From a virus: 44,914 nt of DNA. Under the pieces are notes generated by a model. The model saw only the letters and a program-made list of their open reading frames with translations, searched no databases and was not told the origin of the DNA. The translations under genes were made by a program, and so were the position numbers. Positions 11,114 to 44,914 of this stretch are shown here, piece after piece (the stretch's first letter is position 1; every line of letters begins with the position of its first letter). The DNA lies in UHGV virus genome UHGV-0253772; one strand, written 5' to 3'.

Positions 11114-11189
11114 TGGAGAATCCGAAGGGACTCGAACCCTTATAAACCTGTTTTGCAGACAGGCACATAGCCATTTCTGTCACGGATTC
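11114..11189 (-). tRNA. tRNA-Cys (anticodon GCA)
   Basis: manual cloverleaf: 7 bp acceptor, T-loop GGTTCGAGTCC, anticodon loop cuGCAaa, CCA encoded. Confidence 0.65.
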
Positions 11190-11193
11190 AAAT

Positions 11194-11286
11194 TGGAGGA
11201 AGATACCAGACTTGAACTGGTACACCGATTTCTCAGTTACTGGCAGTTTAGCAAACTGCTCCCTTACCTTTTAGGGTTAATCTTCC
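11194..11286 (-). tRNA. tRNA-Ser (anticodon GCU), long variable arm
   Basis: 93 nt, T-loop GTTCAAGTC, anticodon loop ttGCTaa, long extra arm. Confidence 0.6.
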
Positions 11287-11287
11287 A

Positions 11288-12022
11288 TTATTTCTGTAAT
11301 GCGTTCTTCATTTCTGGTGTTGCAATAGTGTCAATCACACCAGTTTTACAAGCATCGTCAAACCAGTCTGGTAAGATACCTGCTAAGAACCCATTGATAT
11401 TCGTTTTAAGGTACTCTGCAATAAGGGCAGCTTCTTCTTCAATCATCTGCACAACTTCATCTGCATAAGCTGTAATCTTCGAAATACCTTCATTAATCTT
11501 ACTAACAGCTTGGTTAGCTAAATCAGAAATAGTATCAAGACCTTTGTCAATAGCATCTTGTAAGTCACTTAATACATCATTAACACCGTCTAGTGCACTG
11601 TTAATCATATCAATAGCTTTTTGACCATACTCTGTAGCAACACCCATAATACCACTAAATGGTGTACAACCGACTTGTTCACCTGCTGCACCCATAACAT
11701 TAGAATAACCTTTTGCTACCTGCATACGTGATGAAAACTCATCAATGGACTTTTGACCGTAATCCGTCAGCGTTTTGGTAGTTGATGTAGTACTTGTCAG
11801 ACTCGTTGTAAAGCTGTTAAGCAGAACTGTTGTAAGTCCAGCAGCAACAAGTTTATCCTTTATTGTAGGGTCTGTTACAGAGCTAATAGAGCTTACAAGT
11901 GATGTAGAGGCAGCTACGGTTCCACCGAGAACTGCTGCACCAGTAATAAGGGGATTAGAAAACCCTCTACCGGTTTTTAAGAGATTAAAAATCTCCTTAC
12001 CTTGTTCTGTCATCTCTTTCAT
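11288..12022 (-). CDS. hypothetical protein with N-terminal hydrophobic segment and helical C-terminal region
   Basis: ORF-track start at 12085 would overlap a tRNA; internal ATG at 12022 taken as start (244 aa). Confidence 0.5.
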   Translation of the reverse strand: MKEMTEQGKEIFNLLKTGRGFSNPLITGAAVLGGTVAASTSLVSSISSVTDPTIKDKLVAAGLTTVLLNSFTTSLTSTTSTTKTLTDYGQKSIDEFSSRMQVAKGYSNVMGAAGEQVGCTPFSGIMGVATEYGQKAIDMINSALDGVNDVLSDLQDAIDKGLDTISDLANQAVSKINEGISKITAYADEVVQMIEEEAALIAEYLKTNINGFLAGILPDWFDDACKTGVIDTIATPEMKNALQK

Positions 12023-12038
12023 TAAGCACCTTTGAAAT

Positions 12039-12115
12039 TGGTAGTCCAGTGGGATTTGAACCCTCTTCTCATGTTTTTCAGACACGCGCTTTAACCATAT
12101 AAGCTACTTGGACTA
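12039..12115 (-). tRNA. tRNA-Phe (anticodon GAA)
   Basis: T-loop GGTTCAAATCC, anticodon loop ctGAAaa; D-arm and acceptor pairing imperfect in manual fold. Confidence 0.5.
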
Positions 12116-12120
12116 TAAAT

Positions 12121-12196
12121 TGGGGTGACCTACGGGATTTGAACCCGTATAGACCATGTTCACAGCATGGGTCATTACCATTTATGATAAGGCCAC
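12121..12196 (-). tRNA. tRNA-His (anticodon GUG)
   Basis: acceptor 7 bp with one G-U, anticodon stem ccatg/catgg, loop ctGTGaa. Confidence 0.6.
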
Positions 12197-12227
12197 ATTT
12201 AAGGACTCTCGTAAGAACCCTTAGAAG

Positions 12228-12303
12228 TGGCAGCGGCATAAGGATTTGAACCTTAATAAGACAGCTTCAGAGACTGCTGCATTGCCAGTTATGCTATACC
12301 GCT
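12228..12303 (-). tRNA. tRNA-Gln (anticodon CUG)
   Basis: anticodon stem with two G-U pairs, loop ctCTGaa, T-loop TTCAAAT. Confidence 0.5.
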
Positions 12304-12308
12304 AAATT

Positions 12309-12388
12309 TGGTACTCCATATCGGATTCGAACCGATACATAACACAGATTTTAAGTCTGGCCTCTCTGCCAATTGGAGTAATGGAGCA
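12309..12388 (-). tRNA. tRNA-Leu (anticodon UAA), atypical short variable arm
   Basis: D-loop CAATTGGCAGA of type-II style, anticodon loop ctTAAaa, discriminator A, but only about 7 nt variable region; boundaries uncertain. Confidence 0.45.
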
Positions 12389-12389
12389 T

Positions 12390-12465
12390 TGGCGGGGGAT
12401 GTTGGAATTGAACCAACTTCTTCGATTTCAAAGACCGAGGTTTTAACCTTGTAAACTAATCCCCT
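12390..12465 (-). tRNA. tRNA-Gln (anticodon UUG)
   Basis: T-arm gttgg-TTCAATT-ccaac, anticodon stem tcggt/atcga, loop ctTTGaa. Confidence 0.6.
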
Positions 12466-12473
12466 TTAAATCT

Positions 12474-13031
12474 TTACTTTCTTAGTGGATGAATAAAGAA
12501 TGCCAACATAACTCTTTCCCTTGAGAATGCTCTTTCTTCTGGGACAACACTTTTTAGCTTCCACCCAATATAAATTCTCCAGTAAAACTGTTTACCAAAG
12601 ACTTTAATTGATGGGATAAAAGCGAATAATCCCCAAGCATTGCTGTTCCACATTAGGAGATAACCTGTCTGATTATCTTCAGGGTTAGAACTTACGTTGA
12701 TATTACCTTTCCACTTAGTAACATCTTTTACATCTCTTCCTAACACATGGTAAGAGAAGTTATAAGCTTTGTTTCTCCAGAGCCAACCAACTCTCTGCAT
12801 ATAGACACCAAGCTTACCAATCTTTCTAATCTTAGCCCATCGTTCGATATGACCTTCATCACCATCAATTGGGTTGTCATAAGTTTCCATCCATCTGAAC
12901 CCGAAAGGTAAGTGTCCTTTCTTCTCACTGTAGAATGGAACTACAAAAGGTGCTAAGATAACTGCTAAGATTGCTGCAAATGGCTCTAATAAAGCTAAGA
13001 AAATCCATGAAGCATACTTCAAATATCTCAT
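12474..13031 (-). CDS. hypothetical membrane protein
   Basis: 185 aa, N-terminal hydrophobic helices, W/Y-rich; ATG start. Confidence 0.5.
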   Translation of the reverse strand: MRYLKYASWIFLALLEPFAAILAVILAPFVVPFYSEKKGHLPFGFRWMETYDNPIDGDEGHIERWAKIRKIGKLGVYMQRVGWLWRNKAYNFSYHVLGRDVKDVTKWKGNINVSSNPEDNQTGYLLMWNSNAWGLFAFIPSIKVFGKQFYWRIYIGWKLKSVVPEERAFSRERVMLAFFIHPLRK

Positions 13032-13270
13032 TGTCTAATCCTAGTAAGGAGGTAAACATTATTATCTGTTTCTGAGTTTTCTGGTAAAGCTGTCTCAAAA
13101 TTGACGCTTTTAAATTGTCTCCCACCAAAGTAATGACCAATAAATTTTTGTACTTTTATTGGGTCACATTCCCAGCCGACTTTCAAGAAAATGTGGGTAT
13201 CTATAGTGGGAACCCTTACAAACTCAATACTATTGGAATTTTCATGTTCAACGACGATTAATGTTTGCAT
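13028..13270 (-). CDS. hypothetical protein
   Basis: 80 aa ORF, ATG start, overlaps downstream gene start by 4 nt. Confidence 0.45.
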   Translation of the reverse strand: MQTLIVVEHENSNSIEFVRVPTIDTHIFLKVGWECDPIKVQKFIGHYFGGRQFKSVNFETALPENSETDNNVYLLTRIRQ

Positions 13271-13288
13271 AAATCTCTCTTATTTATC

Positions 13289-13364
13289 TGGCGCAGGATA
13301 AGGGACTTGAACCCCTATTAACAGCTTCGTAGACTGTTGCTCTATCCATTTGAACTAATCCTGC
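13289..13364 (-). tRNA. tRNA-Arg (anticodon ACG)
   Basis: clean cloverleaf: acceptor gcaggat/atcctgc, anticodon stem acagt/gctgt, loop ctACGaa. Confidence 0.65.
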
Positions 13365-13479
13365 TTACCTACGAGAACACCATACAGTTTTTCACAAACT
13401 TTGCTTTTACGTCTGTTTAGATATGACGCTCTAAACTTTTTTTGCAATTGACTTATTACTCATAGTGTTCTCCTAAAAT

Positions 13480-13557
13480 TGGTGTTCCAAGACGGATTCG
13501 AACCGTCACTAGTACAAGGTTTGAGCTTGCATCCTCTGCCAATTGGGATACTGGAAC
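13480..13557 (-). tRNA. tRNA-Leu (anticodon CAA), atypical short variable arm
   Basis: D-loop CAATTGGCAGA, anticodon stem gcaag/cttgt, loop ctCAAac, discriminator A, about 6 nt variable region. Confidence 0.5.
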
Positions 13558-13558
13558 A

Positions 13559-13633
13559 TGGTACTCACTAAAGGACTTGAACCTTTTTCTTCATCTTGTA
13601 AGGGTGATGTTTTACCATATAAACTAAGCGAGT
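13559..13633 (-). tRNA. tRNA-Val (anticodon UAC)
   Basis: T-arm aaagg-TTCAAGT-ccttt, anticodon loop ctTACaa, one mismatch in anticodon stem. Confidence 0.5.
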
Positions 13634-13729
13634 GTGAAAGAGGTCTGAAGTTGTGCCACTAACTCAACTCCGTGGAATTTGTTACGGTCTTCAGTTGACT
13701 CAAAGTGGTCTTTCACTTGACCTCTGAAT

Positions 13730-13805
13730 TGGTGCTCCCACAAGGATTCGAACCCTGATAAGTTGCTTACAAGGCAACCGTAATAGCCAATTATACGATA
13801 GGAGC
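13730..13805 (-). tRNA. tRNA-Thr (anticodon UGU)
   Basis: anticodon stem gttgc/gcaac perfect, loop ctTGTaa, T-loop TTCGAAT. Confidence 0.65.
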
Positions 13806-13812
13806 ATTAATT

Positions 13813-13887
13813 TGGAGCATCCAGAGGGAATCGAACCCTCAACCTCAGTTTGGAAGACTGTAATTTTCCCGTTTAAACTATGGATGC
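13813..13887 (-). tRNA. tRNA-Gly (anticodon UCC)
   Basis: acceptor gcatcca/tggatgc, T-arm gaggg-TTCGATT-ccctc, loop ctTCCaa. Confidence 0.6.
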
Positions 13888-13893
13888 ACTAAT

Positions 13894-13969
13894 TGGTGGA
13901 GTCACTGAGAATTGAACTCAGTTCCCAAGTTTGCAAAACTCGAATTTTAACCATATAAACTATGACCCC
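13894..13969 (-). tRNA. tRNA-Ala (anticodon UGC)
   Basis: acceptor with G3-U70 pair typical of Ala identity, anticodon loop ttTGCaa. Confidence 0.6.
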
Positions 13970-13974
13970 AATTT

Positions 13975-14050
13975 TGGTACAGGTGGAGGGAATTGAACCC
14001 ATCGTCTTACTGATTAAGAGTCAGCCGCATAACCATTTTGCTACACCTGC
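13975..14050 (-). tRNA. tRNA-Lys (anticodon CUU)
   Basis: anticodon stem gctga/tcagt, loop ctCTTaa; T-stem only 3 clean pairs. Confidence 0.5.
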
Positions 14051-14057
14051 ATTAATT

Positions 14058-14134
14058 TGGTACACCTAGAGAGATTCGAACTCACACTGAGCAGATTCTA
14101 AGTCTGCTGCCTCTACCAATTGGGCTATAGGTGC
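14058..14134 (-). tRNA. tRNA-Leu (anticodon UAG), atypical short variable arm
   Basis: D-loop CAATTGGTAGA, anticodon stem gcaga/tctgc perfect, loop ctTAGaa, discriminator A, 5 nt variable region. Confidence 0.55.
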
Positions 14135-14377
14135 ATTAAATCTTTTTAGAGAACTTCTAAGAACCTAAGCAACAAGGTTCCACAACAAGCTGTAATAACC
14201 TTAGAAGCCCTCTAAAAAGACCTAATTTGGTCTTTGCATAGTCTTGTTTAATCCGGTGACTAGAACCTTTGGAGAGCTTGATATTATCTCTTCTCCGTGA
14301 CACCTACTAGGTGCTTTACTGTGCGTGTACGACAATACACGAGGGATAAACCGAAAATGCGAGCAAGCATGGACGGA

Positions 14378-14719
14378 TTAAATCTTTAAGCTAAGTTCAG
14401 TCTTAGACTTGACATCTTTAGCTTTGTAGATGACAACTTTATCAAGTGGTTCAATGTAAACAGCTAAGTAATCAACTTGAGAGTTATCAAAATTCATTAT
14501 TCTATTTTCATTCTTGTTAGAACGAACTCTTTTCAGTTGCACTCTCCAAAGTTCACCTCTTTTGACTGATGTTGATTTTACCTCAACAGTCTCAATCAAG
14601 CCATCTTTGTGGACTAGAAAGTCATACTTTGCATTATCTGTAGCTGGTGAATACACTTCATAACCTCTTTTGAGGAAAGCTAATTGTGTAGCAATTTCAC
14701 CTACTGAACCTTTCTTCAT
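14378..14719 (-). CDS. Hjc-like PD-(D/E)xK nuclease (Holliday-junction-resolvase-like fold)
   Basis: motif order GSxGE ... YDFLV ... IETVEVKS matches the E-D-ExK signature of Hjc-type nucleases; ATG at 14719 with AAGGTGA upstream; the ORF-track start at 14728 is a GTG. Confidence 0.45.
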   Translation of the reverse strand: MKKGSVGEIATQLAFLKRGYEVYSPATDNAKYDFLVHKDGLIETVEVKSTSVKRGELWRVQLKRVRSNKNENRIMNFDNSQVDYLAVYIEPLDKVVIYKAKDVKSKTELSLKI

Positions 14720-14740
14720 AATCATCACCTTAAATTATTT

Positions 14741-14827
14741 TGGCAGAGAGTGCAGGAGTTGAACCCGTACCGTTTCCAGCAGCACCAGTTTTCAAGGCTG
14801 GTTGGTCTCCGTTGACCGCCACTCTCT
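14741..14827 (-). tRNA. tRNA-Ser (anticodon UGA), long variable arm
   Basis: 87 nt, perfect 7 bp acceptor agagagt/actctct, loop ctTGAaa, extra arm present. Confidence 0.6.
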
Positions 14828-14831
14828 CCGA

Positions 14832-14902
14832 AACAATCTTTGGCAGGGGTGTAGAGATTCGAACTCTAATCAAGAATTTTGGAGACTCTATTGCTGCCAT
14901 AG
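14832..14902 (-). tRNA. tRNA-Trp (anticodon CCA)
   Basis: acceptor aggggtg/cacccct, T-arm tagag-TTCGAAT-ctcta, loop ctCCAaa. Confidence 0.6.
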
Positions 14903-15050
14903 CTCACCCCTATTAAAACTACAATTCGAAGCTTACCGTATTATCTCAACACTGTAAAGCCCCTTCTCAGATTATTTACATGTTCTGGAAAACATGAGAT
15001 ACAGACCACCTCCCTACAGGAAGACCCGCTTAGGTCGTCTAAGTAATCTG

Positions 15051-15127
15051 CTAACTAATTGGCACACCCTACAGGATTCGAACCTGTAACTAACGATTTA
15101 GAAGACCGTTGCTCTATCCAATTGAAC
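15051..15127 (-). tRNA. tRNA-Arg (anticodon UCU)
   Basis: T-arm acagg-TTCGAAT-cctgt perfect, anticodon loop ctTCTaa. Confidence 0.6.
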
Positions 15128-15473
15128 TAAGGGTGCATTAATCTTTAAAGACTCTCTTAGAAAGCCCTTAAAGATGCCCACCTTATTAATCATACCGTGG
15201 GCTAGTACGCCAAATTCTTTGATGAGGGATTGGAATACCTCACTGGTGTTTAGCCTATCAAGCTACTGCCAGAAAAACATTGTCGTTTGCATTTATTTTA
15301 AATTTGCAAAATAGACGCTACGCAACGAAAACTATTCAGAATATGTACAACAAATTTCCCCACATTGTGTTACGTCTAACGCTCATGTATTGGTGTTTGA
15401 ATTATACATATTATGAATTATTTTTAGTTACTATAAAGTAGTCACATCTTAATGTCAACAACTTTATTGAAAT

Positions 15474-15549
15474 TGGTACTGGTAGGTGGAATCGAACCAC
15501 CGATGTTCCCTTATCAGGGGAGTGTTATAACCTTCTTAACTATACCAGC
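15474..15549 (-). tRNA. tRNA-Ile (anticodon GAU)
   Basis: T-arm ggtgg-TTCGATT-ccacc, anticodon loop ctGATaa. Confidence 0.6.
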
Positions 15550-15550
15550 T

Positions 15551-15627
15551 TGGAGGTTCAGATGGGAATCGAACCCACATTCATAGGGCTTATGAAACCC
15601 CTGCATTACCTTATCTGCGACTGAACC
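15551..15627 (-). tRNA. tRNA-Met (anticodon CAU)
   Basis: anticodon stem with three consecutive G-C pairs, loop ttCATaa; cannot distinguish initiator, elongator or Ile2 by eye. Confidence 0.55.
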
Positions 15628-15705
15628 ATAATAAGTACCCTAGTTAGAGAAACTGTTGAGTGGGTGTTTCCAGCCGCGCAGGTGTTTCTCAGTTAAGGGT
15701 GAATT

Positions 15706-15781
15706 TGGTAGAAGTGGAGGGATTCGAACCCATCGCCTGTCAGATTAAAAGTCTGCCGCATCACCATTCTGCTACACTTCC
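15706..15781 (-). tRNA. tRNA-Lys (anticodon UUU)
   Basis: T-arm similar to the Lys(CUU) gene, anticodon loop ctTTTaa. Confidence 0.55.
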
Positions 15782-16239
15782 ATTAAATTATCTTTGTAGA
15801 TAAGCTACCCAGACTTGCTTAAGGTCTGTAGCGATGTGCCTTTTTGGGTTTAAATCTAGAATTTACCCTTTCACCCTTTGTGGTCGCATACTCACAGGTA
15901 AGCTTAATAACTTATCTACAAAGATAATTACCAGACCGTTGTTTATCATCTTAAGTGCTACCATTACACCAACTCGACATCTGCCGAGTGAAGGAATCGA
16001 ACCTTCGCCTTTTCTTTACCGGAGAAATAGATTGTTTAAGTTTTGCTGTAAACGGTCTTCTGTAAATTTGTTGAGCCAGACCAAGTTTTAAATTTTTTCA
16101 AAATTAAATTGGCTTGAAAATATCATACGTACTTGCTGAATTTGGTCTTCTGCTCCTTTAAAGAATACTCGTAAGAACTCTTTAAGGGAGGGGCTAAATA
16201 GCCCTCTCAAAACATCATTTTGAAATACTTATTATAATT

Positions 16240-16316
16240 TGGCGGCTACGATGAGACTTGAACTCACATCATCTCCCGTGACAGGGGAGTATTTTCTCCA
16301 GTTAAACTACATAGCC
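16240..16316 (-). tRNA. tRNA-Asp (anticodon GUC)
   Basis: anticodon stem ctccc/gggag perfect, loop ctGTCac. Confidence 0.6.
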
Positions 16317-16321
16317 TCTAT

Positions 16322-16409
16322 TGGTGTGCCGTGTAGGAGTCGAACCTACCGAGTCTCAATGACAAGGGATTTACAGTCCCCACCGCTACCATCTACGGGA
16401 TAACGACAC
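16322..16409 (-). tRNA. tRNA-Tyr (anticodon GUA), long variable arm
   Basis: 88 nt, T-arm gtagg-TTCGACT-cctac, loop ctGTAaa, extra arm. Confidence 0.6.
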
Positions 16410-16418
16410 ATTTTAATT

Positions 16419-16495
16419 TGGCGGTTAGTCAGGGATTCGAACCCTGTGCCATTCGCTTAACAGGCGACCGCACATACCTTATGTGCTTCCTAACC
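16419..16495 (-). tRNA. tRNA-Asn (anticodon GUU)
   Basis: T-arm caggg-TTCGAAT-ccctg, D-stem gcac/gtgc, loop ctGTTaa. Confidence 0.6.
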
Positions 16496-16571
16496 TTAAT
16501 ACATTACCAGACCGTGTTTTTCTTTTATCCGCAAAAAGTAGTTTGTTGCTGAATACGGTCTTCTGTAAAAT

Positions 16572-16648
16572 TGGAGGCGGGTGCAGGAGTCGAACCTGCC
16601 GATACCATGCTAATGAGACATGTGAGACGCCCTTTCTCTATACCCGCA
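16572..16648 (-). tRNA. tRNA-Met (anticodon CAU), second copy
   Basis: T-arm gcagg-TTCGACT-cctgc, anticodon stem catgt/gcatg, loop ctCATta; acceptor boundaries uncertain. Confidence 0.45.
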
Positions 16649-16739
16649 ATTCTTAATGACCAGACCAAATCTCTTCTTTGTCCGATTTACCTTCAGATGA
16701 ATAAGATTAAGTTTGCTGTAATTGGTCTTCTGTCAAAAC

Positions 16740-16817
16740 TGGCGTTCCAGAAGGGATTTGAACCCTCAGATATCCACTTTGAAAGAGTGGTGACTTTACC
16801 ATTTTGTCTACTGGAAC
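16740..16817 (-). tRNA. tRNA-Glu (anticodon UUC)
   Basis: acceptor gttccag/ctggaac, anticodon stem ccact/agtgg perfect, loop ctTTCaa. Confidence 0.6.
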
Positions 16818-16824
16818 ATTAATT

Positions 16825-16901
16825 TGGTCTCTGTTGGAGGACTTGAACCTCCGGCCTTACCGCCCCAAACGGAACGCTCTACCAAGCTGAGCTAAACAGA
16901 G
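16825..16901 (-). tRNA. tRNA-Pro (anticodon UGG)
   Basis: acceptor ctctgtt/aacagag, T-arm ggagg-TTCAAGT-cctcc, loop ttTGGgg. Confidence 0.55.
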
Positions 16902-27326: not shown

Positions 27327-27337
27327 AATATCTTAAG

Positions 27338-27370
27338 AGCCTCCTTAATCGGGGGCTTTTTAATTTTTAT
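27338..27370 (+). terminator. rho-independent terminator ending the plus-strand block
   Basis: hairpin AGCCTCC-ttaatc-GGGGGCT followed by a T-rich run. Confidence 0.55.
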
Positions 27371-27399
27371 AAAATTTTATCGGTTGTCCCAACCTCTGG

Positions 27400-28900
27400 G
27401 TCACCATCATATGTGAATAAGATATCTACCCTTCTTAATAGCCTTCTTAATCTTACTCTCTATATAGTTATATAGTACTATACAGTATCTTAGTAACTAT
27501 CTAGTGGTCTTAATAGCCCTCTGTATAGCCCTTCTAAACACTCTTCTAACAAGCCTTCTTAACAGCCTATACAATCACCTTAACCGTACCTCTACACCCT
27601 CTTAGAAGCCCCTATACACCTCTTAATCTCTATGTCAGCTATGATACCCTCTATATGTGTTCACTAGGGAATACTAAGCCTCTATATAGACTGTTTTAAC
27701 AAACTTAACAGGAATATCTTCACAGACCTTATCTCACAAGGTCTAACACGGTACTAACAAGGTATCTTATAAGCCTGTTTATGCCTGTATTTTTAAAAGA
27801 CTGTATAGGTAATTATTCAGAATTTTAAAATTTTTATAAAATAGGACTATCAAGTCATTTTTTAGGGTCTTTGAAGGAACTGAAAAATATCTGTAGAAGA
27901 TGTATATCTGCTTGGTAGCCCTTAACATCCCTGTAACATCCCCTTTGCAGAATTTTAAAATATCATTAACAATCTCTTAACAGCTATTACATTCTCTTAA
28001 CATCTCTTCAGAGGTCTTAACAGATTCTTAACAGAACTAACAAGGGTGTAACAAGTTCTTAACAGTCAATACATGGTCTTTATAGTTTCTTAACAGATGA
28101 CTAACAATAGCTAACAAGTTAATTTTTAAGAGTTATTTTGTAGGGATTGGTAACAATACCAATTAAGATAATTAACAAGTTTCTAACAAGTGTTTAATCT
28201 TTTTAACAAGCTATTAACATGGTCACTATCTCTTTTCTTATCATTCCCTTTCCCTCTTAGTGATTCTCTAAATAGCCCTCTTAAAAGCTCTCTATAGCTC
28301 CTTGTAAGCTCTTTTAAGCCTCTTCCTAGTAGTTACACCCCAACTGTACAGACACCTTTTTATAGGGCTTTACAGGGGCTTTAAAGGCTATGTCAAAGGT
28401 TCTTACAAGGCTTTTACGTGGTCTTAACAGAGATTTAACAAGGGGCTAACAAGTTGCTAACAAGTGCCTTAAAAGCATAACTATGTAGGGATTGTTAAGA
28501 AATTGTTAAGGGGGCTAGCATTTACGTAACTTTTAAGCTATCTATCACGTAACTTTGAAGTAACTTTATAGCCCCTATAACATACTTTTTAGTGACTATC
28601 AAGGGGATTGTTTAGTTATTCACAAGATACTAACGAGATAATAAAGCTCACACCCTTATAAGATTCTTTTAAGCCTCTATAAAGCCCTGTAAAGAGCTTT
28701 TAAGGGTGAGTTAATGCAATCCCTTAAGTTAGATTGATAAGGCTGTTATAGCGCTTTATAGAGCGTTTAAGTGGGCCATCCCCTTTCTGGGGTTATTGGC
28801 TTATATTTAAGTTGATTTGATAAAAGGCTATAGAGTAGACTATAGAGTTATTGCTTTTAAGGTCTGATAAGATTCTGAAAAGGTGAGGAAAGGGATTGTA
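27400..28900. repeat. ORF-free region dense in short TAACA(A/G)-type motifs and other short direct repeats
   Basis: no ORF of 60 aa or more on either strand; roughly 30 copies of cTTAACAG / cTAACAAG-like motifs, clustered at 27960-28230 and 28420-28465. Confidence 0.6.
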
Positions 28901-28918
28901 TAAGGATTGGATAGACGT

Positions 28919-28940
28919 AAAAAAGCCCCTGTGAGGGGCT
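28919..28940 (-). terminator. rho-independent terminator ending the minus-strand small-gene array
   Basis: minus-strand hairpin AGCCCCUCACAGGGGCU followed by U6. Confidence 0.6.
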
Positions 28941-28980
28941 GTATAAAGGTATCTGGGGCTATTTAGCCCCGTTGCGTCGA

Positions 28981-39307: not shown

Positions 39308-40417
39308 TTAGATTTCACGTTTACGTTGAGAGATGAGTTCACCAGCAGTGCCAACGATGACATGCAAAGCTTCGGCCTTACCATCCCATGCTTTCAGCAC
39401 TTTACGTTGATTATCAACGATTGCTGTAACTTCATAACGAGAGGAACGCATCTTCATATCGTTGTAATCAGTTGGGACAGACACAACATCTCGTGGATGG
39501 ACACGAACCTTCAGGATTGTATCGCCTGAGAAGCAACGAACATAATCCCAAGCACCAACATGAAGACCTTGAGAGCAAGTCACGTTACGGTTATTATCAA
39601 CCATCCAACGTGGCATTTCTACAATGTTACCCAAATCATTAGGTACTTTGTATGTGCGGGAGTCAACCAGCTTGCCTTCATGAGTAGAGACTTTCTTCCA
39701 ACCAATGATGTAACCTTCTTCATCAATTTCAACATCAAGGTGAGATACGAAGCCCCAAAGTTGTTCTACAGAGTCTTTAGATGGGTTTTCCATCAGTTTT
39801 TCGAAGAACATTACAAGTCGTTCAAAGCCTTTATCACCAGTCTTCATCATGTGAAGAATACGGTCAACCAGAGTAGAACGCATCTCAACAGCACCGTAGA
39901 ATAACTTGTCACCTTTGATTGTGATAGCACCCTGAGTGAAGTTTTCGATAGACTTACGAATGTTCATCAGTTCAAAGGCTTTCTTGAACTCACCTTTCAC
40001 AACATGAACTACAATCTCTTGATAGTTCGGATGAGTAGACTCAACAATTTCAGATTCTGAACCGTAAGTCATAATTACAGAGTCACCAGTAATCATGTAC
40101 TCAATCTTGTCATCTTTCTGCATAGCTTCATGCAGTTTATTTACCGGAGCTTTCTGTACAGAATCTTTAACAACCTTTTCAACTGGCTTGTCAGCTTTCT
40201 TTTTAAAGGTCTTAGCAACTTGTTTCAAAGTCTTTGTAGCTGGTGTAGAAGTTGCCTTCTTCTTCCCTTTTAAGGTTGCTTCATGACGCTCTACAGCACG
40301 ACCGACTGAACGGGTTGAAGTATTGAATTTCTGTGCAATAGCTGTTTTGGTCAGCTTACCTTCTTTAACCAGTTTGTAAATTTCTGCGTCAATCTGTGCT
40401 TTAGTTTTAGTAGTCAT
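39308..40417 (-). CDS. rIIB-like protein (tentative)
   Basis: 369 aa ORF immediately downstream of the rIIA-like gene; assignment by synteny and size only. Confidence 0.35.
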   Translation of the reverse strand: MTTKTKAQIDAEIYKLVKEGKLTKTAIAQKFNTSTRSVGRAVERHEATLKGKKKATSTPATKTLKQVAKTFKKKADKPVEKVVKDSVQKAPVNKLHEAMQKDDKIEYMITGDSVIMTYGSESEIVESTHPNYQEIVVHVVKGEFKKAFELMNIRKSIENFTQGAITIKGDKLFYGAVEMRSTLVDRILHMMKTGDKGFERLVMFFEKLMENPSKDSVEQLWGFVSHLDVEIDEEGYIIGWKKVSTHEGKLVDSRTYKVPNDLGNIVEMPRWMVDNNRNVTCSQGLHVGAWDYVRCFSGDTILKVRVHPRDVVSVPTDYNDMKMRSSRYEVTAIVDNQRKVLKAWDGKAEALHVIVGTAGELISQRKREI

Positions 40418-40496: not shown

Positions 40497-42863
40497 TTAA
40501 TCGTAAATTGTAGTCCCTTCTGGAACACACTTCACATCAAAGCCTAAGAACTTACTCACTTCGATAGGTGACACTTTATTCCAATCTAAATGAGAAAGCA
40601 AGAAGTTTTCTTGTTTTCTTTTTGAAAGATAGTTTGTCACCTTAATAACCATACGGTCACCAGCTTTCTTAATTTTATTGTACAGCTTTGTATCGTTGTC
40701 AAGGCATTCTTTCAAAGTTTGCAATCTACTAACAGTGTAAGTGTATGCAAACGGTGCAGCAACGTATTGGATTTTACCAAACATTGCCTCTACAGCCTCT
40801 TCATTACCTTCTAGGAAGATAGTTTTGTTTGTATCCCGTGAATAGCAATAACCACGAGAAATCTTCCTGTTATTGAATGTAAAGTTTCTGGCAATAATCC
40901 AGCTACTTGTAAGGTCAAGAACACCATTCATATAGATACGTGTCATATACCTGTTATGATTAATCCAATGAACATCAGTTAAGCTGTCGTTCAAGAGCTT
41001 CTCATCTACTTCAATCCAGTCTTCTGGTATCTTTTTCCAATTTGCTTTTCGGAAAACATATACTGTCTTTCCAATGACATTGGCAACTGACTTAGCTACA
41101 TCTTCTGGAGATGAGCAAAAACATTCGCCATCAACTGTGTCGCCTACTGCCTTAATATAAAGCTGAGGCTCTTCAATCGTATCTAAGTCTTCTGACACCT
41201 CTTTGTATGAAGCTACACCTTCTGCTGGAACAGCTTTCCAGAGTTTTACAACACCTCTTACAGCTTCTTTACGCTGATAATGGTGTTCCTTATCAGACAT
41301 CTTCACAATCTTTAACAAGCTTTTATCAAGTTTGTGTAGATTGATTAAGTCATCTAACTCTTTTTCAGTAGAGAATACAAAGACAATACCATTGTATCTG
41401 TGAAACAGACTTGACTCACTGGCATAGTCTCGACATGCACCACGCAAGATTTGGTTGCGTCCTACAGTCTTCTCAGTACCGTTTTTATTGCGACGGTCAT
41501 TTATAACAAACAAAAACTGTTCAATTTGGCTTTTACGCATTGCGCCAAAGATATTGAACATGCTTGCCTCTTGAGTGTAGGAAAGTGCTGTTGCACGAAT
41601 CTTACTCTCTAAAGAGTTGAACTTGACATAAGCAACTGGTTCATAAAGGTAATCTACTTTAGGTATGTTGTTCCCTTTGCTGTCAACCTTAATATTACCT
41701 TTACCATCACGTTCATAAATGACTGAACCGTCTTCTGCGTAGATAATTCCACGACGAATGTTTAGTAATTCTTCTTCCAGAGAATCAAGCTTAACACCAC
41801 CCCACTCTAGCTTTGGACACACAGCATTAAACATCTCTCGTGAGTTCAAACGTAACTCAGCATAAGCCTGTGCAGCATCCATGAGTGTAGGTTGGTTATT
41901 AACACCCTTAATAACGTCCCTTGTGATTGCTTCAGTTATCTTTTTAGTAGCCTCGATGATAACATTTTTTGTCGTGTCATTCATCTGCAATGCTTCACGA
42001 GAAGCTGCAATAGCAACTGAACCAATAGGCATGTAGATGTTTACAAGGTCTACGCTCCTACGGAAAAATTCTGGCAAGACTTTGAAGAAATCATCGCCAA
42101 GTAACGCTTCCATGTTAACTGGATAGGCAATATTACCCATCACCACATTAAACTCTGTCCTGTTATCGCTAGAGCGCCAACTTAGCTTATGAATCATGGC
42201 ATCATAAACACCCTCTTCACGAGCAATGACGTTCATATCTGCTAATACATCGTCGTACACAATATTACTTTCTGGTTTTACAGCAAAGTATGAGTATACA
42301 TTACCAGCTTCTTCAAAGAACTTTGAGATACGATGGTCAGCAACTGCTACACGTACAGCTAAACCATTAGGTTCTTTTGTTGGGTTAGTGGTCAGCTTGG
42401 TTACTTGAGGGATACCATTCTCAAGATAAACAGAGTATTTATTAACAACACCATCAACGTAGCTAGATACTGTGAATGACTGAGCAATCGCAAACGGTGA
42501 CTTTGAACCGATACCCATTGCACCAATGTAGTCATTAGAGTCATTCTTTGTAGAAGCCCCGTAGTTTAGGTACAAACTCATAACTTTATCATGAGTTAAT
42601 CCAGTTCCAAAATCACGAACTTCAAAGTAAGGCTCAAAACGAGTAGGTAAATGCACATGGAACGGGATGTTCTCTTTTCCAGCTTCTTTCTGAGCATCTA
42701 CTGCGTTACATGACAGTTCACGAATAACTGCCCTTTCTTTAAATGTGTATACACCAGAACTCAAAAGGCTGAACATTTCAGGTGTCATTGTAATCTGTGC
42801 TTGAGACGTCTCTAAAGAAGTTGAACTCTTAATCACTTCTGCGTGGTCGTTTACCATGCGCAT
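40497..42863 (-). CDS. rIIA-like protein with N-terminal GHKL-type ATPase fold
   Basis: N-box ELSCNAVDA, G1 box RDFGTGL, G2 box GAMGIGSKS near the N-terminus; 788 aa. Confidence 0.55.
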   Translation of the reverse strand: MRMVNDHAEVIKSSTSLETSQAQITMTPEMFSLLSSGVYTFKERAVIRELSCNAVDAQKEAGKENIPFHVHLPTRFEPYFEVRDFGTGLTHDKVMSLYLNYGASTKNDSNDYIGAMGIGSKSPFAIAQSFTVSSYVDGVVNKYSVYLENGIPQVTKLTTNPTKEPNGLAVRVAVADHRISKFFEEAGNVYSYFAVKPESNIVYDDVLADMNVIAREEGVYDAMIHKLSWRSSDNRTEFNVVMGNIAYPVNMEALLGDDFFKVLPEFFRRSVDLVNIYMPIGSVAIAASREALQMNDTTKNVIIEATKKITEAITRDVIKGVNNQPTLMDAAQAYAELRLNSREMFNAVCPKLEWGGVKLDSLEEELLNIRRGIIYAEDGSVIYERDGKGNIKVDSKGNNIPKVDYLYEPVAYVKFNSLESKIRATALSYTQEASMFNIFGAMRKSQIEQFLFVINDRRNKNGTEKTVGRNQILRGACRDYASESSLFHRYNGIVFVFSTEKELDDLINLHKLDKSLLKIVKMSDKEHHYQRKEAVRGVVKLWKAVPAEGVASYKEVSEDLDTIEEPQLYIKAVGDTVDGECFCSSPEDVAKSVANVIGKTVYVFRKANWKKIPEDWIEVDEKLLNDSLTDVHWINHNRYMTRIYMNGVLDLTSSWIIARNFTFNNRKISRGYCYSRDTNKTIFLEGNEEAVEAMFGKIQYVAAPFAYTYTVSRLQTLKECLDNDTKLYNKIKKAGDRMVIKVTNYLSKRKQENFLLSHLDWNKVSPIEVSKFLGFDVKCVPEGTTIYD

Positions 42864-43752: not shown

Positions 43753-43773
43753 AAAAAGGCTCCCGTAGGAGCC
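43753..43773 (-). terminator. rho-independent terminator
   Basis: minus-strand GGCUCC-UACG-GGAGCC hairpin followed by U5. Confidence 0.6.
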
Positions 43774-43788
43774 TCTTATCATATACTT

Positions 43789-44914
43789 TTAAAGCTGCTT
43801 GTCAATATTATTTCGAATATCACCAAGAGATGTGTAACCATACTGCTCAGAATCACTAAAGACTAAGCGTAGAGCACAAGCTGGATGTTCAAGTGCATCT
43901 GCAAAGCTTTTGAATCCATAGCCATCTACAGCTTTCAGTTTATCACCATCCCACATAGGTGCTACACCACCAAAAGCAGACTTCTTAACACCACTATCTG
44001 TTTTAGGGTCTTTTGCAAGCATAATCTCTTTACCACCAATGCTTGCAAGAGTTGCTTTAACAGCAAATGCAAAGGTGTCACGAGTCATGTACTGGTAAGT
44101 GTAGGAGCCTACGCCAAACACTACGTTAGAGCTTGCAAAACCCATTTCATACATACGCTTCAGGATTTCGTTTGCACGTTCCAGTGTGATAGAGTCACCA
44201 TAGATAAGGCCAATGTGCTCATCCAGTACCTTAAAACCTTTGGAGTTGATAGTCCCTCCGAAGATGTTATACAGAGTCTTAATAGCTCCATCAATCTCTG
44301 CTACAGGGCGTGTTACAACGTTTGCAGAACCAACCATATAAGCATTTTTCAACATCACTGTATCAGCAACTTCAAAATCTTCTCTGTCAACAACCATTTC
44401 GTAGCCTTCTGACAGTAGCCATCCAGCAATACCATAGCTGATGTTTTCAAGCTTCATATTCATAACAGCATTCAACATTGTGTCGCTGGCTTCAAGCTTA
44501 CTAAGGTGCTCATAATAAGCCTTTTTAGCGCACTCTAAGTGGATTGCTTTATAACCTGTGACAATATGTACAGGGTCTCCAGAGTCAGGACGAATTACCA
44601 GTTTACCGTCACGTTCCATAATCTCTTTGCGAAGTGCTGGTAAGATTTCTGACACAGTTCTCCAGAAGTTATAAGTATCTGAAACAACACTTGCAATACC
44701 AGTCGGGTAAGTCTCTGTTAAGAAACGACGGAAGGTCTGCAACTCACCTTTAAAGCGTCTTTCCTCTTCAATCAATTCATTACCACCTTCCCAAGCAATG
44801 TTTGCACACATTACAGAGTGTTCAGTGGCTGGTACAGAACCACCAATATCAGAGACTTGGTAAGACTGTCCGTAGATGCGTTTAGCTGTATATACAGCAG
44901 GGAAGCTATCAGTC
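43789..44914 (-). CDS. nicotinamide phosphoribosyltransferase (NAMPT), 5'-truncated by window edge
   Basis: RPDSGDP signature of the NAPRTase family; reading frame stays open upstream of the annotated Met to the window end (SVPATEHSV... resembles the NAMPT active-site region). Confidence 0.75.
   Translation of the reverse strand, partial: TDSFPAVYTAKRIYGQSYQVSDIGGSVPATEHSVMCANIAWEGGNELIEEERRFKGELQTFRRFLTETYPTGIASVVSDTYNFWRTVSEILPALRKEIMERDGKLVIRPDSGDPVHIVTGYKAIHLECAKKAYYEHLSKLEASDTMLNAVMNMKLENISYGIAGWLLSEGYEMVVDREDFEVADTVMLKNAYMVGSANVVTRPVAEIDGAIKTLYNIFGGTINSKGFKVLDEHIGLIYGDSITLERANEILKRMYEMGFASSNVVFGVGSYTYQYMTRDTFAFAVKATLASIGGKEIMLAKDPKTDSGVKKSAFGGVAPMWDGDKLKAVDGYGFKSFADALEHPACALRLVFSDSEQYGYTSLGDIRNNIDKQL

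Follow-up and report, generated by a model that had tools for sequence, protein, structure and literature searches.

The NARP1 counter-defence (NAD+ reconstitution pathway 1) was discovered in Bas63, that is, Escherichia phage JohannRWettstein (MZ501086.1), whose genes 79 and 80, annotated as Prs and Nampt, correspond to Adps and Namat (nicotinamide ADP-ribose transferase) and overcome the SIR2-HerA defence (Osterman et al., bioRxiv 10.1101/2024.02.11.579819). Deletion of genes 79-80 lowered plating on SIR2-HerA cells by ~20-fold and abolished NAD+ recovery, and the counter-defence was independent of the host enzymes NadR and PncC. The intermediate of the pathway is ADPR-pyrophosphate (ADPR-PP), which Namat joins to nicotinamide to give NAD+ directly, and no phage has been reported to carry both NARP1 and NARP2 (bioRxiv 10.1101/2024.02.11.579819). 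The conversion of ADPR-PP and nicotinamide to NAD+ has been demonstrated for the SPbetaL1, DyoEdafos, and Paenibacillus homologues (literature including bioRxiv 10.1101/2024.02.11.579819 and PMC12774641). The in vitro biochemistry refers to the short-form SPbetaL1 enzymes, while the long-form Bas63 type is represented by operon deletion and metabolomics only (bioRxiv 10.1101/2024.02.11.579819). Structurally, Namat combines the catalytic core of Nampt with a "selectivity clamp", which holds the adenine of ADPR-PP or NAD+ by stacking. The two halves of the clamp are an N-terminal loop (SCL, beta1-beta2), which in an AlphaFold3 model of Bas63 Namat supplies the adenine-stacking residue, and a helix (SCH) whose consensus reads GS-X-phi-X-phi-X-phi-TRD with aromatic residues at X (PMC12774641). 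Some NARP1 operons also include Adpp, a Macro-domain ADPR-1''-phosphate phosphatase, which enables this variant, NARP1-AP, to overcome aRES, something ordinary NARP1 cannot do; the survey of Adpp covered only genes at most two positions from the NARP1 operon (bioRxiv 10.64898/2026.01.28.702374).

Extent, family, and genomic setting of the namat fragment

The DNA analyzed here is a 44,914-nt stretch of a viral genome (UHGV-0253772), referred to as the window. Its last 1.1 kb were initially annotated as a NAMPT gene, based on an RPDSGDP signature and an open frame continuing to the window edge. Both features are present: the minus strand holds one unbroken frame of 374 sense codons up to the edge (window:43792-44913:-), closed by a TAA stop codon at 43789-43791, and RPDSGDP occupies residues 108-114 of the encoded fragment (Table 1). 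The ORF list places the start of namat at the ATG at 44811. Homology, including the ATEHS motif, extends upstream of this codon as far as the edge, and the true start is therefore located outside the window. As the Bas63 and warpig proteins have a full length of 593 aa, the window encodes the C-terminal 63% of Namat (374/593 residues).

Profile searches placed the fragment securely among the NAMPT-like type II phosphoribosyltransferases (PF04095/PRK09198). The Pfam NAPRTase family PF04095 matched with E=1.4e-29 and 103.9 bits (cut-off 20.8), and two PHROG families named "nicotinamide phosphoribosyl transferase" matched with E=4.8e-144 and 1.2e-108. NCBIfam PRK09198, a profile of 465 positions, matched at positions 203-462 with E=5.5e-78 and a score of 262.7 bits that lies below the curated whole-protein cut-off of 405, the fragment covering only the last ~56% of the profile.

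Matches to the window DNA came from 251 phage records, almost exclusively of Felixounavirus (Ounavirinae) with Escherichia, Salmonella, Shigella, and Citrobacter as hosts, the top match being Escherichia phage warpig (96.5% nucleotide identity). On these sequence matches the window is assigned to Felixounavirus. The namat fragment itself is 93.6-96.5% identical in nucleotides to the Felixounavirus genes, and the order rIIB, rIIA, three small ORFs, and namat is the same in warpig, wV8, and Bas63. At the protein level, 360 of the 374 residues (96%) are identical to residues 220-593 of Bas63_0080 (QXV81771.1) with zero gaps, and the gene is thus an orthologue of the founding Namat. The closest protein overall, at 98% identity, is metagenomic (P0001, encoded on contig L011). 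Over the fragment, the Bas63 gene differs at 72 nucleotides (6.4% divergence), of which 58 are at third codon positions, and 55 synonymous codon changes stand against 14 non-synonymous ones; this pattern shows that namat is under purifying selection.

In warpig, wV8, Bas63, and L011, a gene for a 293-aa "ribose-phosphate pyrophosphokinase" carrying Pribosyltran and Pribosyl_synth domains is located 46 nt upstream of namat, and the protein encoded by L011 shares 95% identity with Bas63_0079 (Adps). None of the four has an NMN adenylyltransferase at this position. The initial annotation had expected a partner adenylyltransferase just beyond coordinate 44914; in these relatives a partner gene is indeed located there, but it encodes the Prs-like Adps and not an NMNAT/NadM-like protein. 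Judging from relatives with 93-98% identity, Adps most likely lies beyond 44914 in the genome of the window as well, together with the N-terminal 219 residues of Namat. The SCL half of the clamp belongs to the N-terminal ~50 residues of the protein and hence lies beyond the window edge.

It is thus highly probable that the fragment represents two-thirds of namat, from its 3' end, and that namat is the downstream member of a two-gene NARP1 operon in a Felixounavirus. Its allele is presumably active by analogy, the chemistry and the anti-defence phenotype being those described in the literature. The suggestion that the locus serves phage NAD+ reconstitution as a counter-defence agrees with the published NARP1 role of the orthologous Bas63 Namat (bioRxiv 10.1101/2024.02.11.579819). 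Being the same gene in the same genus as the Bas63 gene characterized in 2024, the feature is already known, and its value as a discovery is small. The value for annotation is larger, since databases label the gene NAMPT or NadV, a label that predicts the wrong chemistry (NMN instead of direct NAD+ synthesis), the wrong partner (NMNAT versus Adps), and the wrong substrate (PRPP versus defence-generated ADP-ribose).

With regard to annotation, PHROGs divides the Namat protein between an N-terminal family (phrog_16547, 315 aa) and a C-terminal family (phrog_15800, 322 aa), and Klebsiella phage TTM-TASP117 and Escherichia phage 19-1-2 are among the records in which the gene appears as two "hypothetical proteins" or as partial. 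From the separate families and the two-part or partial records, namat may be split or interrupted in some phages.

Table 1. Positions of the features in the window.
Feature	Position	Strand	Remarks
namat, 3' part (374 codons and stop)	43789-44914	-	Bas63_0080 residues 220-593; first ~219 codons beyond the edge
ATEHS, conserved catalytic His	44815-44829	-	Fragment H32 = Bas63 H251; invariant in alignments A1 and A3
Insertion 1, WEGGNELIEEERRFKGELQ	44743-44799	-	~Fragment aa 39-57; alignment A1, per-sequence counts, AF2 model
RPDSGDP	44572-44592	-	Fragment R108 and D110 = SPbetaL1 Arg306 and Asp308; invariant in A1 and A3
Insertion 2	44290-44553	-	Residues ~121-208 of the fragment, ~340-427 of the full protein; appears as a gap in A1 and PDB alignments
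IYGDS	44191-44205	-	GDS = SPbetaL1 Gly360-Asp361-Ala362; G239 and D240 invariant
SCH clamp motif, GSYTYQYMTRD	44077-44109	-	Fits the published consensus
Promoter-like site, TTGACA-16-TATGAT	43778-43805	-	Sigma-70-like, near consensus (11/12)
Intrinsic terminator, hairpin AAGAGGCTCC-TACG-GGAGCCTTTT, then TAATTT	43754-43777	-	Terminator scan
Small ORF, 58 aa	42892-43068	-	Flanked by rIIA and the small ORFs that follow namat
rIIA	40497-42863		
rIIB	39308-40417		
Macro-domain ORF, 261 aa	34872-35657	-	Macro E=4.4e-8, aa 25-141
Repeat-rich gene junction, 1.65 kb	27327-28980		Convergent genes
tRNA gene cluster	11114-16901	-	ARAGORN

Namat and Nampt signatures

The catalytic core is fully conserved in the window protein. 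The ATEHS histidine corresponds to the histidine whose phosphorylation activates Nampt, and in SPbetaL1 Namat, Arg306 and Asp308 of the RPDSGDP motif bind ribose, with R306A/G abolishing activity, while Gly360-Asp361-Ala362 touch the NMN ribose as well as the AMP phosphate and ribose of NAD+ (PMC12774641). The SCH motif has tyrosine at 3/3 X positions and methionine at phi-3, where asparagine or valine is commoner. Alignment A1 combined the window protein with the Prs-linked proteins of Bas63, warpig, Erwinia phage Coenus, and Bacillus phage FADO, and with Straboviridae proteins lacking a Prs neighbour, namely KVP40-like PVA23 and Klebsiella phage Miro. In this alignment the Prs-linked group reads GS[FY]TYQ[YM]xTRD, whereas the Straboviridae group reads GGGLLQxxxRD (GGGLLQQLDRD in PVA23 and GGGLLQEVTRD in Miro). 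A Namat-type SCH was found in 40/40 sampled close homologues, and the window protein, with GSYTYQYMTRD, does not have the NARP2-type helix that lacks adenine-stacking aromatics. The SCH motif thus provides a simple sequence test for Namat that is usable even on a truncated gene.

By sequence, SPbetaL1 Namat (E=8.8e-66) was the closest solved relative, followed by Haemophilus NadV (1.2e-48) and mammalian NAMPT (~1e-13). For the full-length protein with 98% identity, an AlphaFold2 model (pLDDT 91.7, pTM 0.89) matched the Namat crystal structures 9w5x/9w5w best, with a TM-score of 0.95 on the target and E=3e-52. Bas63_0080 shares with the window protein genus, synteny, SCH motif, both insertions described below, and the downstream terminator, and differs by 14 amino acid substitutions. 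SPbetaL1 Namat, crystallized with nicotinamide (9w5x) and with NAD+ (9w5w), shares the fold, the catalytic residues, and the type of SCH motif (GSFTYQYNTRD), but it is a short form of ~490 aa. The long form, to which the window protein belongs, has 593 aa and two extra insertions, one of ~88 residues after the RPDSGDP strand and one of ~15-20 residues after the catalytic histidine. More distant are the NadV-type Nampt of KVP40 (NARP2), HdNadV (9ke8), and the human enzyme (2gvg), which have superfamily, fold, and nicotinamide/ribose-phosphate core in common with the window protein. However, the NARP2, bacterial, and mammalian Nampts, at 24-34% identity to it, have no aromatic adenine clamp, use PRPP and not ADPR-PP, and need an NMNAT. 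Of the original NAMPT assignment, the family therefore holds by Pfam, NCBIfam, and PHROG, but the enzyme is Namat by its Bas63 orthology and SCH motif.

The pathway first proposed, in which a genuine Nampt converts PRPP and nicotinamide to NMN and a phage NMN adenylyltransferase completes NAD+ as in the NARP2 (NadV/NatV) pair of KVP40, draws on the NAMPT or NadV label that Pfam, NCBIfam, PHROG, and GenBank all give the protein, on its fully conserved catalytic core, and on the PRPP-dependent NMN synthesis that Namat partly keeps, the in vitro PRPP-to-NMN activity of SPbetaL1 Namat being roughly half that of human Nampt (PMC12774641). Some NMN synthesis by the window Namat is, by analogy with that enzyme, possible. 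Against this pathway, the SCH is of the Namat type and not the GGGLLQ of the Straboviridae Nampts, and identity amounts to 30-32% with the KVP40-like and Miro proteins versus 52% with the Prs-linked Bacillus phage Namat and 96% with Bas63 Namat. Nor was an adenylyltransferase found in the window or the Bas63 genome, and the neighbour in the relatives is Prs-like. In the ADENYLYLTRANSFERASE search of 48 window ORFs, the Pfam families listed (25 of 30 matched) included none of the cytidylyltransferase fold, and the complete Bas63 annotation contains no NMNAT. A crude motif search for the NMNAT signatures GxFxPxHxGH and ISSTxxR returned 0 matches in six frames of the window and the whole Bas63 genome. 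The motif result agrees with the published absence of phages having both NARP1 and NARP2 which, like the NadR- and PncC-independence of the Bas63 counter-defence, speaks against this pathway (bioRxiv 10.1101/2024.02.11.579819). The combination of NAMPT with NMNAT thus appears largely refuted on the evidence from the window and Bas63, and we regard it as very improbable. Weaker still is a housekeeping module in which Prs would supply PRPP and the NAMPT-like enzyme NMN, raising NAD+ and nucleotide pools for replication with no counter-defence; it was the standard annotation before 2024 and fits the location of the operon in a nucleotide-metabolism block by nrdA/B/D/G, glutaredoxin, thymidylate synthase, and DHFR, but it is most improbable given that in Bas63 ADPR-PP appears only under active NADase defence, that infection in the absence of a defence system brings no NAD+ over-production, and that the operon-deletion phenotype is specific to SIR2-HerA cells (bioRxiv 10.1101/2024.02.11.579819).

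With NARP1 as the preferred reading, the pathway starts from the ADP-ribose and nicotinamide to which NAD+ is cleaved by SIR2-HerA/Nezha, Thoeris type I, DSR, SEFIR, Kongming, SPARSA, and similar defences. The Prs-like Adps, encoded outside the window, would move pyrophosphate from ATP onto ADP-ribose to form ADPR-PP. Namat would then displace the pyrophosphate of ADPR-PP with nicotinamide, relying on the core histidine of ATEHS, the arginine and aspartate of RPDSGDP, and the adenine clamp formed by SCH and the N-terminal loop. In this way NAD+ would be rebuilt with neither an NMN intermediate nor an adenylyltransferase.

Long-form insertions and an unlinked Macro-domain protein

The two insertions that distinguish the long form are both located in the window. 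Insertion 1 adds ~15-27 residues relative to short forms after the sequence CANIA, which follows the catalytic histidine, and is helical in the AF2 model; the site is 20-34 residues long in Ounavirinae-like proteins and 5-10 residues in other long and short forms. Insertion 2 forms an ordered alpha/beta subdomain of ~88 residues after the RPDSGDP strand and is absent from the crystallized SPbetaL1 Namat and from Nampts. It is predicted with a pLDDT of 92-96 within the full-length protein and of 91.3 as an isolated subdomain, and with 14 synonymous versus 2 non-synonymous codon changes relative to Bas63 it is under purifying selection. Structure comparison of the model found no structural relative of insertion 2, and the subdomain is not discussed in the NARP1 and Namat papers cited here (bioRxiv 10.1101/2024.02.11.579819, PMC12774641, bioRxiv 10.64898/2026.01.28.702374).

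Among long-form Namats (alignment A3, proteins P0060-P0113), two sequence-unrelated inserts of ~75-94 residues were observed at this same structural site. Type A is found in Ounavirinae-like phages, and type B (ETPHGExG...NRYDKQYYFID) in Bacillus phage vB_BauM_KLEB27-3 and many metagenomic proteins. Two unrelated inserts at one site suggest repeated insertion events there.

A 261-aa Macro-domain protein is encoded in the window 8.1 kb downstream of namat, outside the operon. It carries a C-terminal extension of ~105 aa that occurs mainly in Felixounavirus-like phages, and its gene is an orthologue of the warpig and Bas63 genes annotated as "putative phosphatase". No Macro domain was found closer to the operon, whether in the three window ORFs that follow namat or in the two upstream of Adps in warpig. 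The protein shares 29% identity (E=3e-15) with the in-operon phosphatase of Vibrio phage Bennett, where the layout is Adps-phosphatase-Namat. A specific link to NARP1 is opposed by the wide occurrence of homologues: they were present in 2,793 phage records, among them T4-like phages, whose proteins are 34-36% identical; to our knowledge, T4-like phages have no NARP1. Of solved relatives, TARG1 and coronavirus Mac1 matched best, and Poa1p gave a weak partial match (E~0.03). Compared with NARP1-AP of the Vibrio phage Gary/Bennett type (Adps-Adpp-Namat), the Adps and Namat core is shared with the NARP1 of the window, but the Macro gene is here unlinked and encodes the C-terminal extension, and its product resembles the Macro proteins from T4-like phages just as closely.

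Judged from sequence, the Macro protein may be an unlinked Adpp feeding NARP1, which we note as a lead; since the published survey was limited to two genes from the operon, an unlinked Adpp would have been missed. If so, it would give Felixounavirus a resistance to aRES like that of NARP1-AP. Insertion 2, in turn, if functional, may add regulation, substrate gating, or hand-over from Adps that is missing from the crystallized short form. The joint reading, in which Felixounavirus NARP1 exceeds the two-enzyme core both through a function of insertion 2 and through an unlinked Macro-domain Adpp, is tentative, and we consider it rather unlikely.

End of the operon and other features of the window

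The hairpin of the intrinsic terminator begins 12 nt past the namat stop codon. The intergenic region containing it is 100% identical in the window, Bas63, warpig, and wV8, whereas coding DNA differs by 4-7%. The hairpin marks where the Adps-Namat transcription unit ends. A promoter-like site is found within the last namat codons, in a region that four Felixounaviruses likewise share at 100% identity. With its -10 element ending one base ahead of the terminator hairpin, this putative promoter would place the transcript start within the hairpin stem, and the transcript might evade termination.

Further downstream, the 58-aa ORF next to rIIA has a hydrophobic N-terminus and a CxxC...CxxC pair; it gave a weak match to DUF5351 (E=0.0024) and is annotated as a "putative membrane protein" in Bas63. 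The convergent gene junction at 27327-28980 is free of Rfam matches and of ORFs exceeding 49 aa, and its 1.66-kb counterpart in Bas63 (70493-72154) is likewise unannotated. The junction is dense in short (T/C)TAACA(A/G) repeats, which are often spaced at 11 nt. Of the 67 YTAACAR sites in the window, 23 fall within 27546-28509, at ~20x the background density, and 21 of these are on one strand. This arrangement resembles an iteron or protein-binding array, and the junction is possibly an origin or a regulatory region. Finally, 27 tRNA genes are clustered in the window, of which 23 were confirmed by Rfam, with small ORFs interspersed among them, and a similar tRNA cluster is present in the Bas63 annotation.
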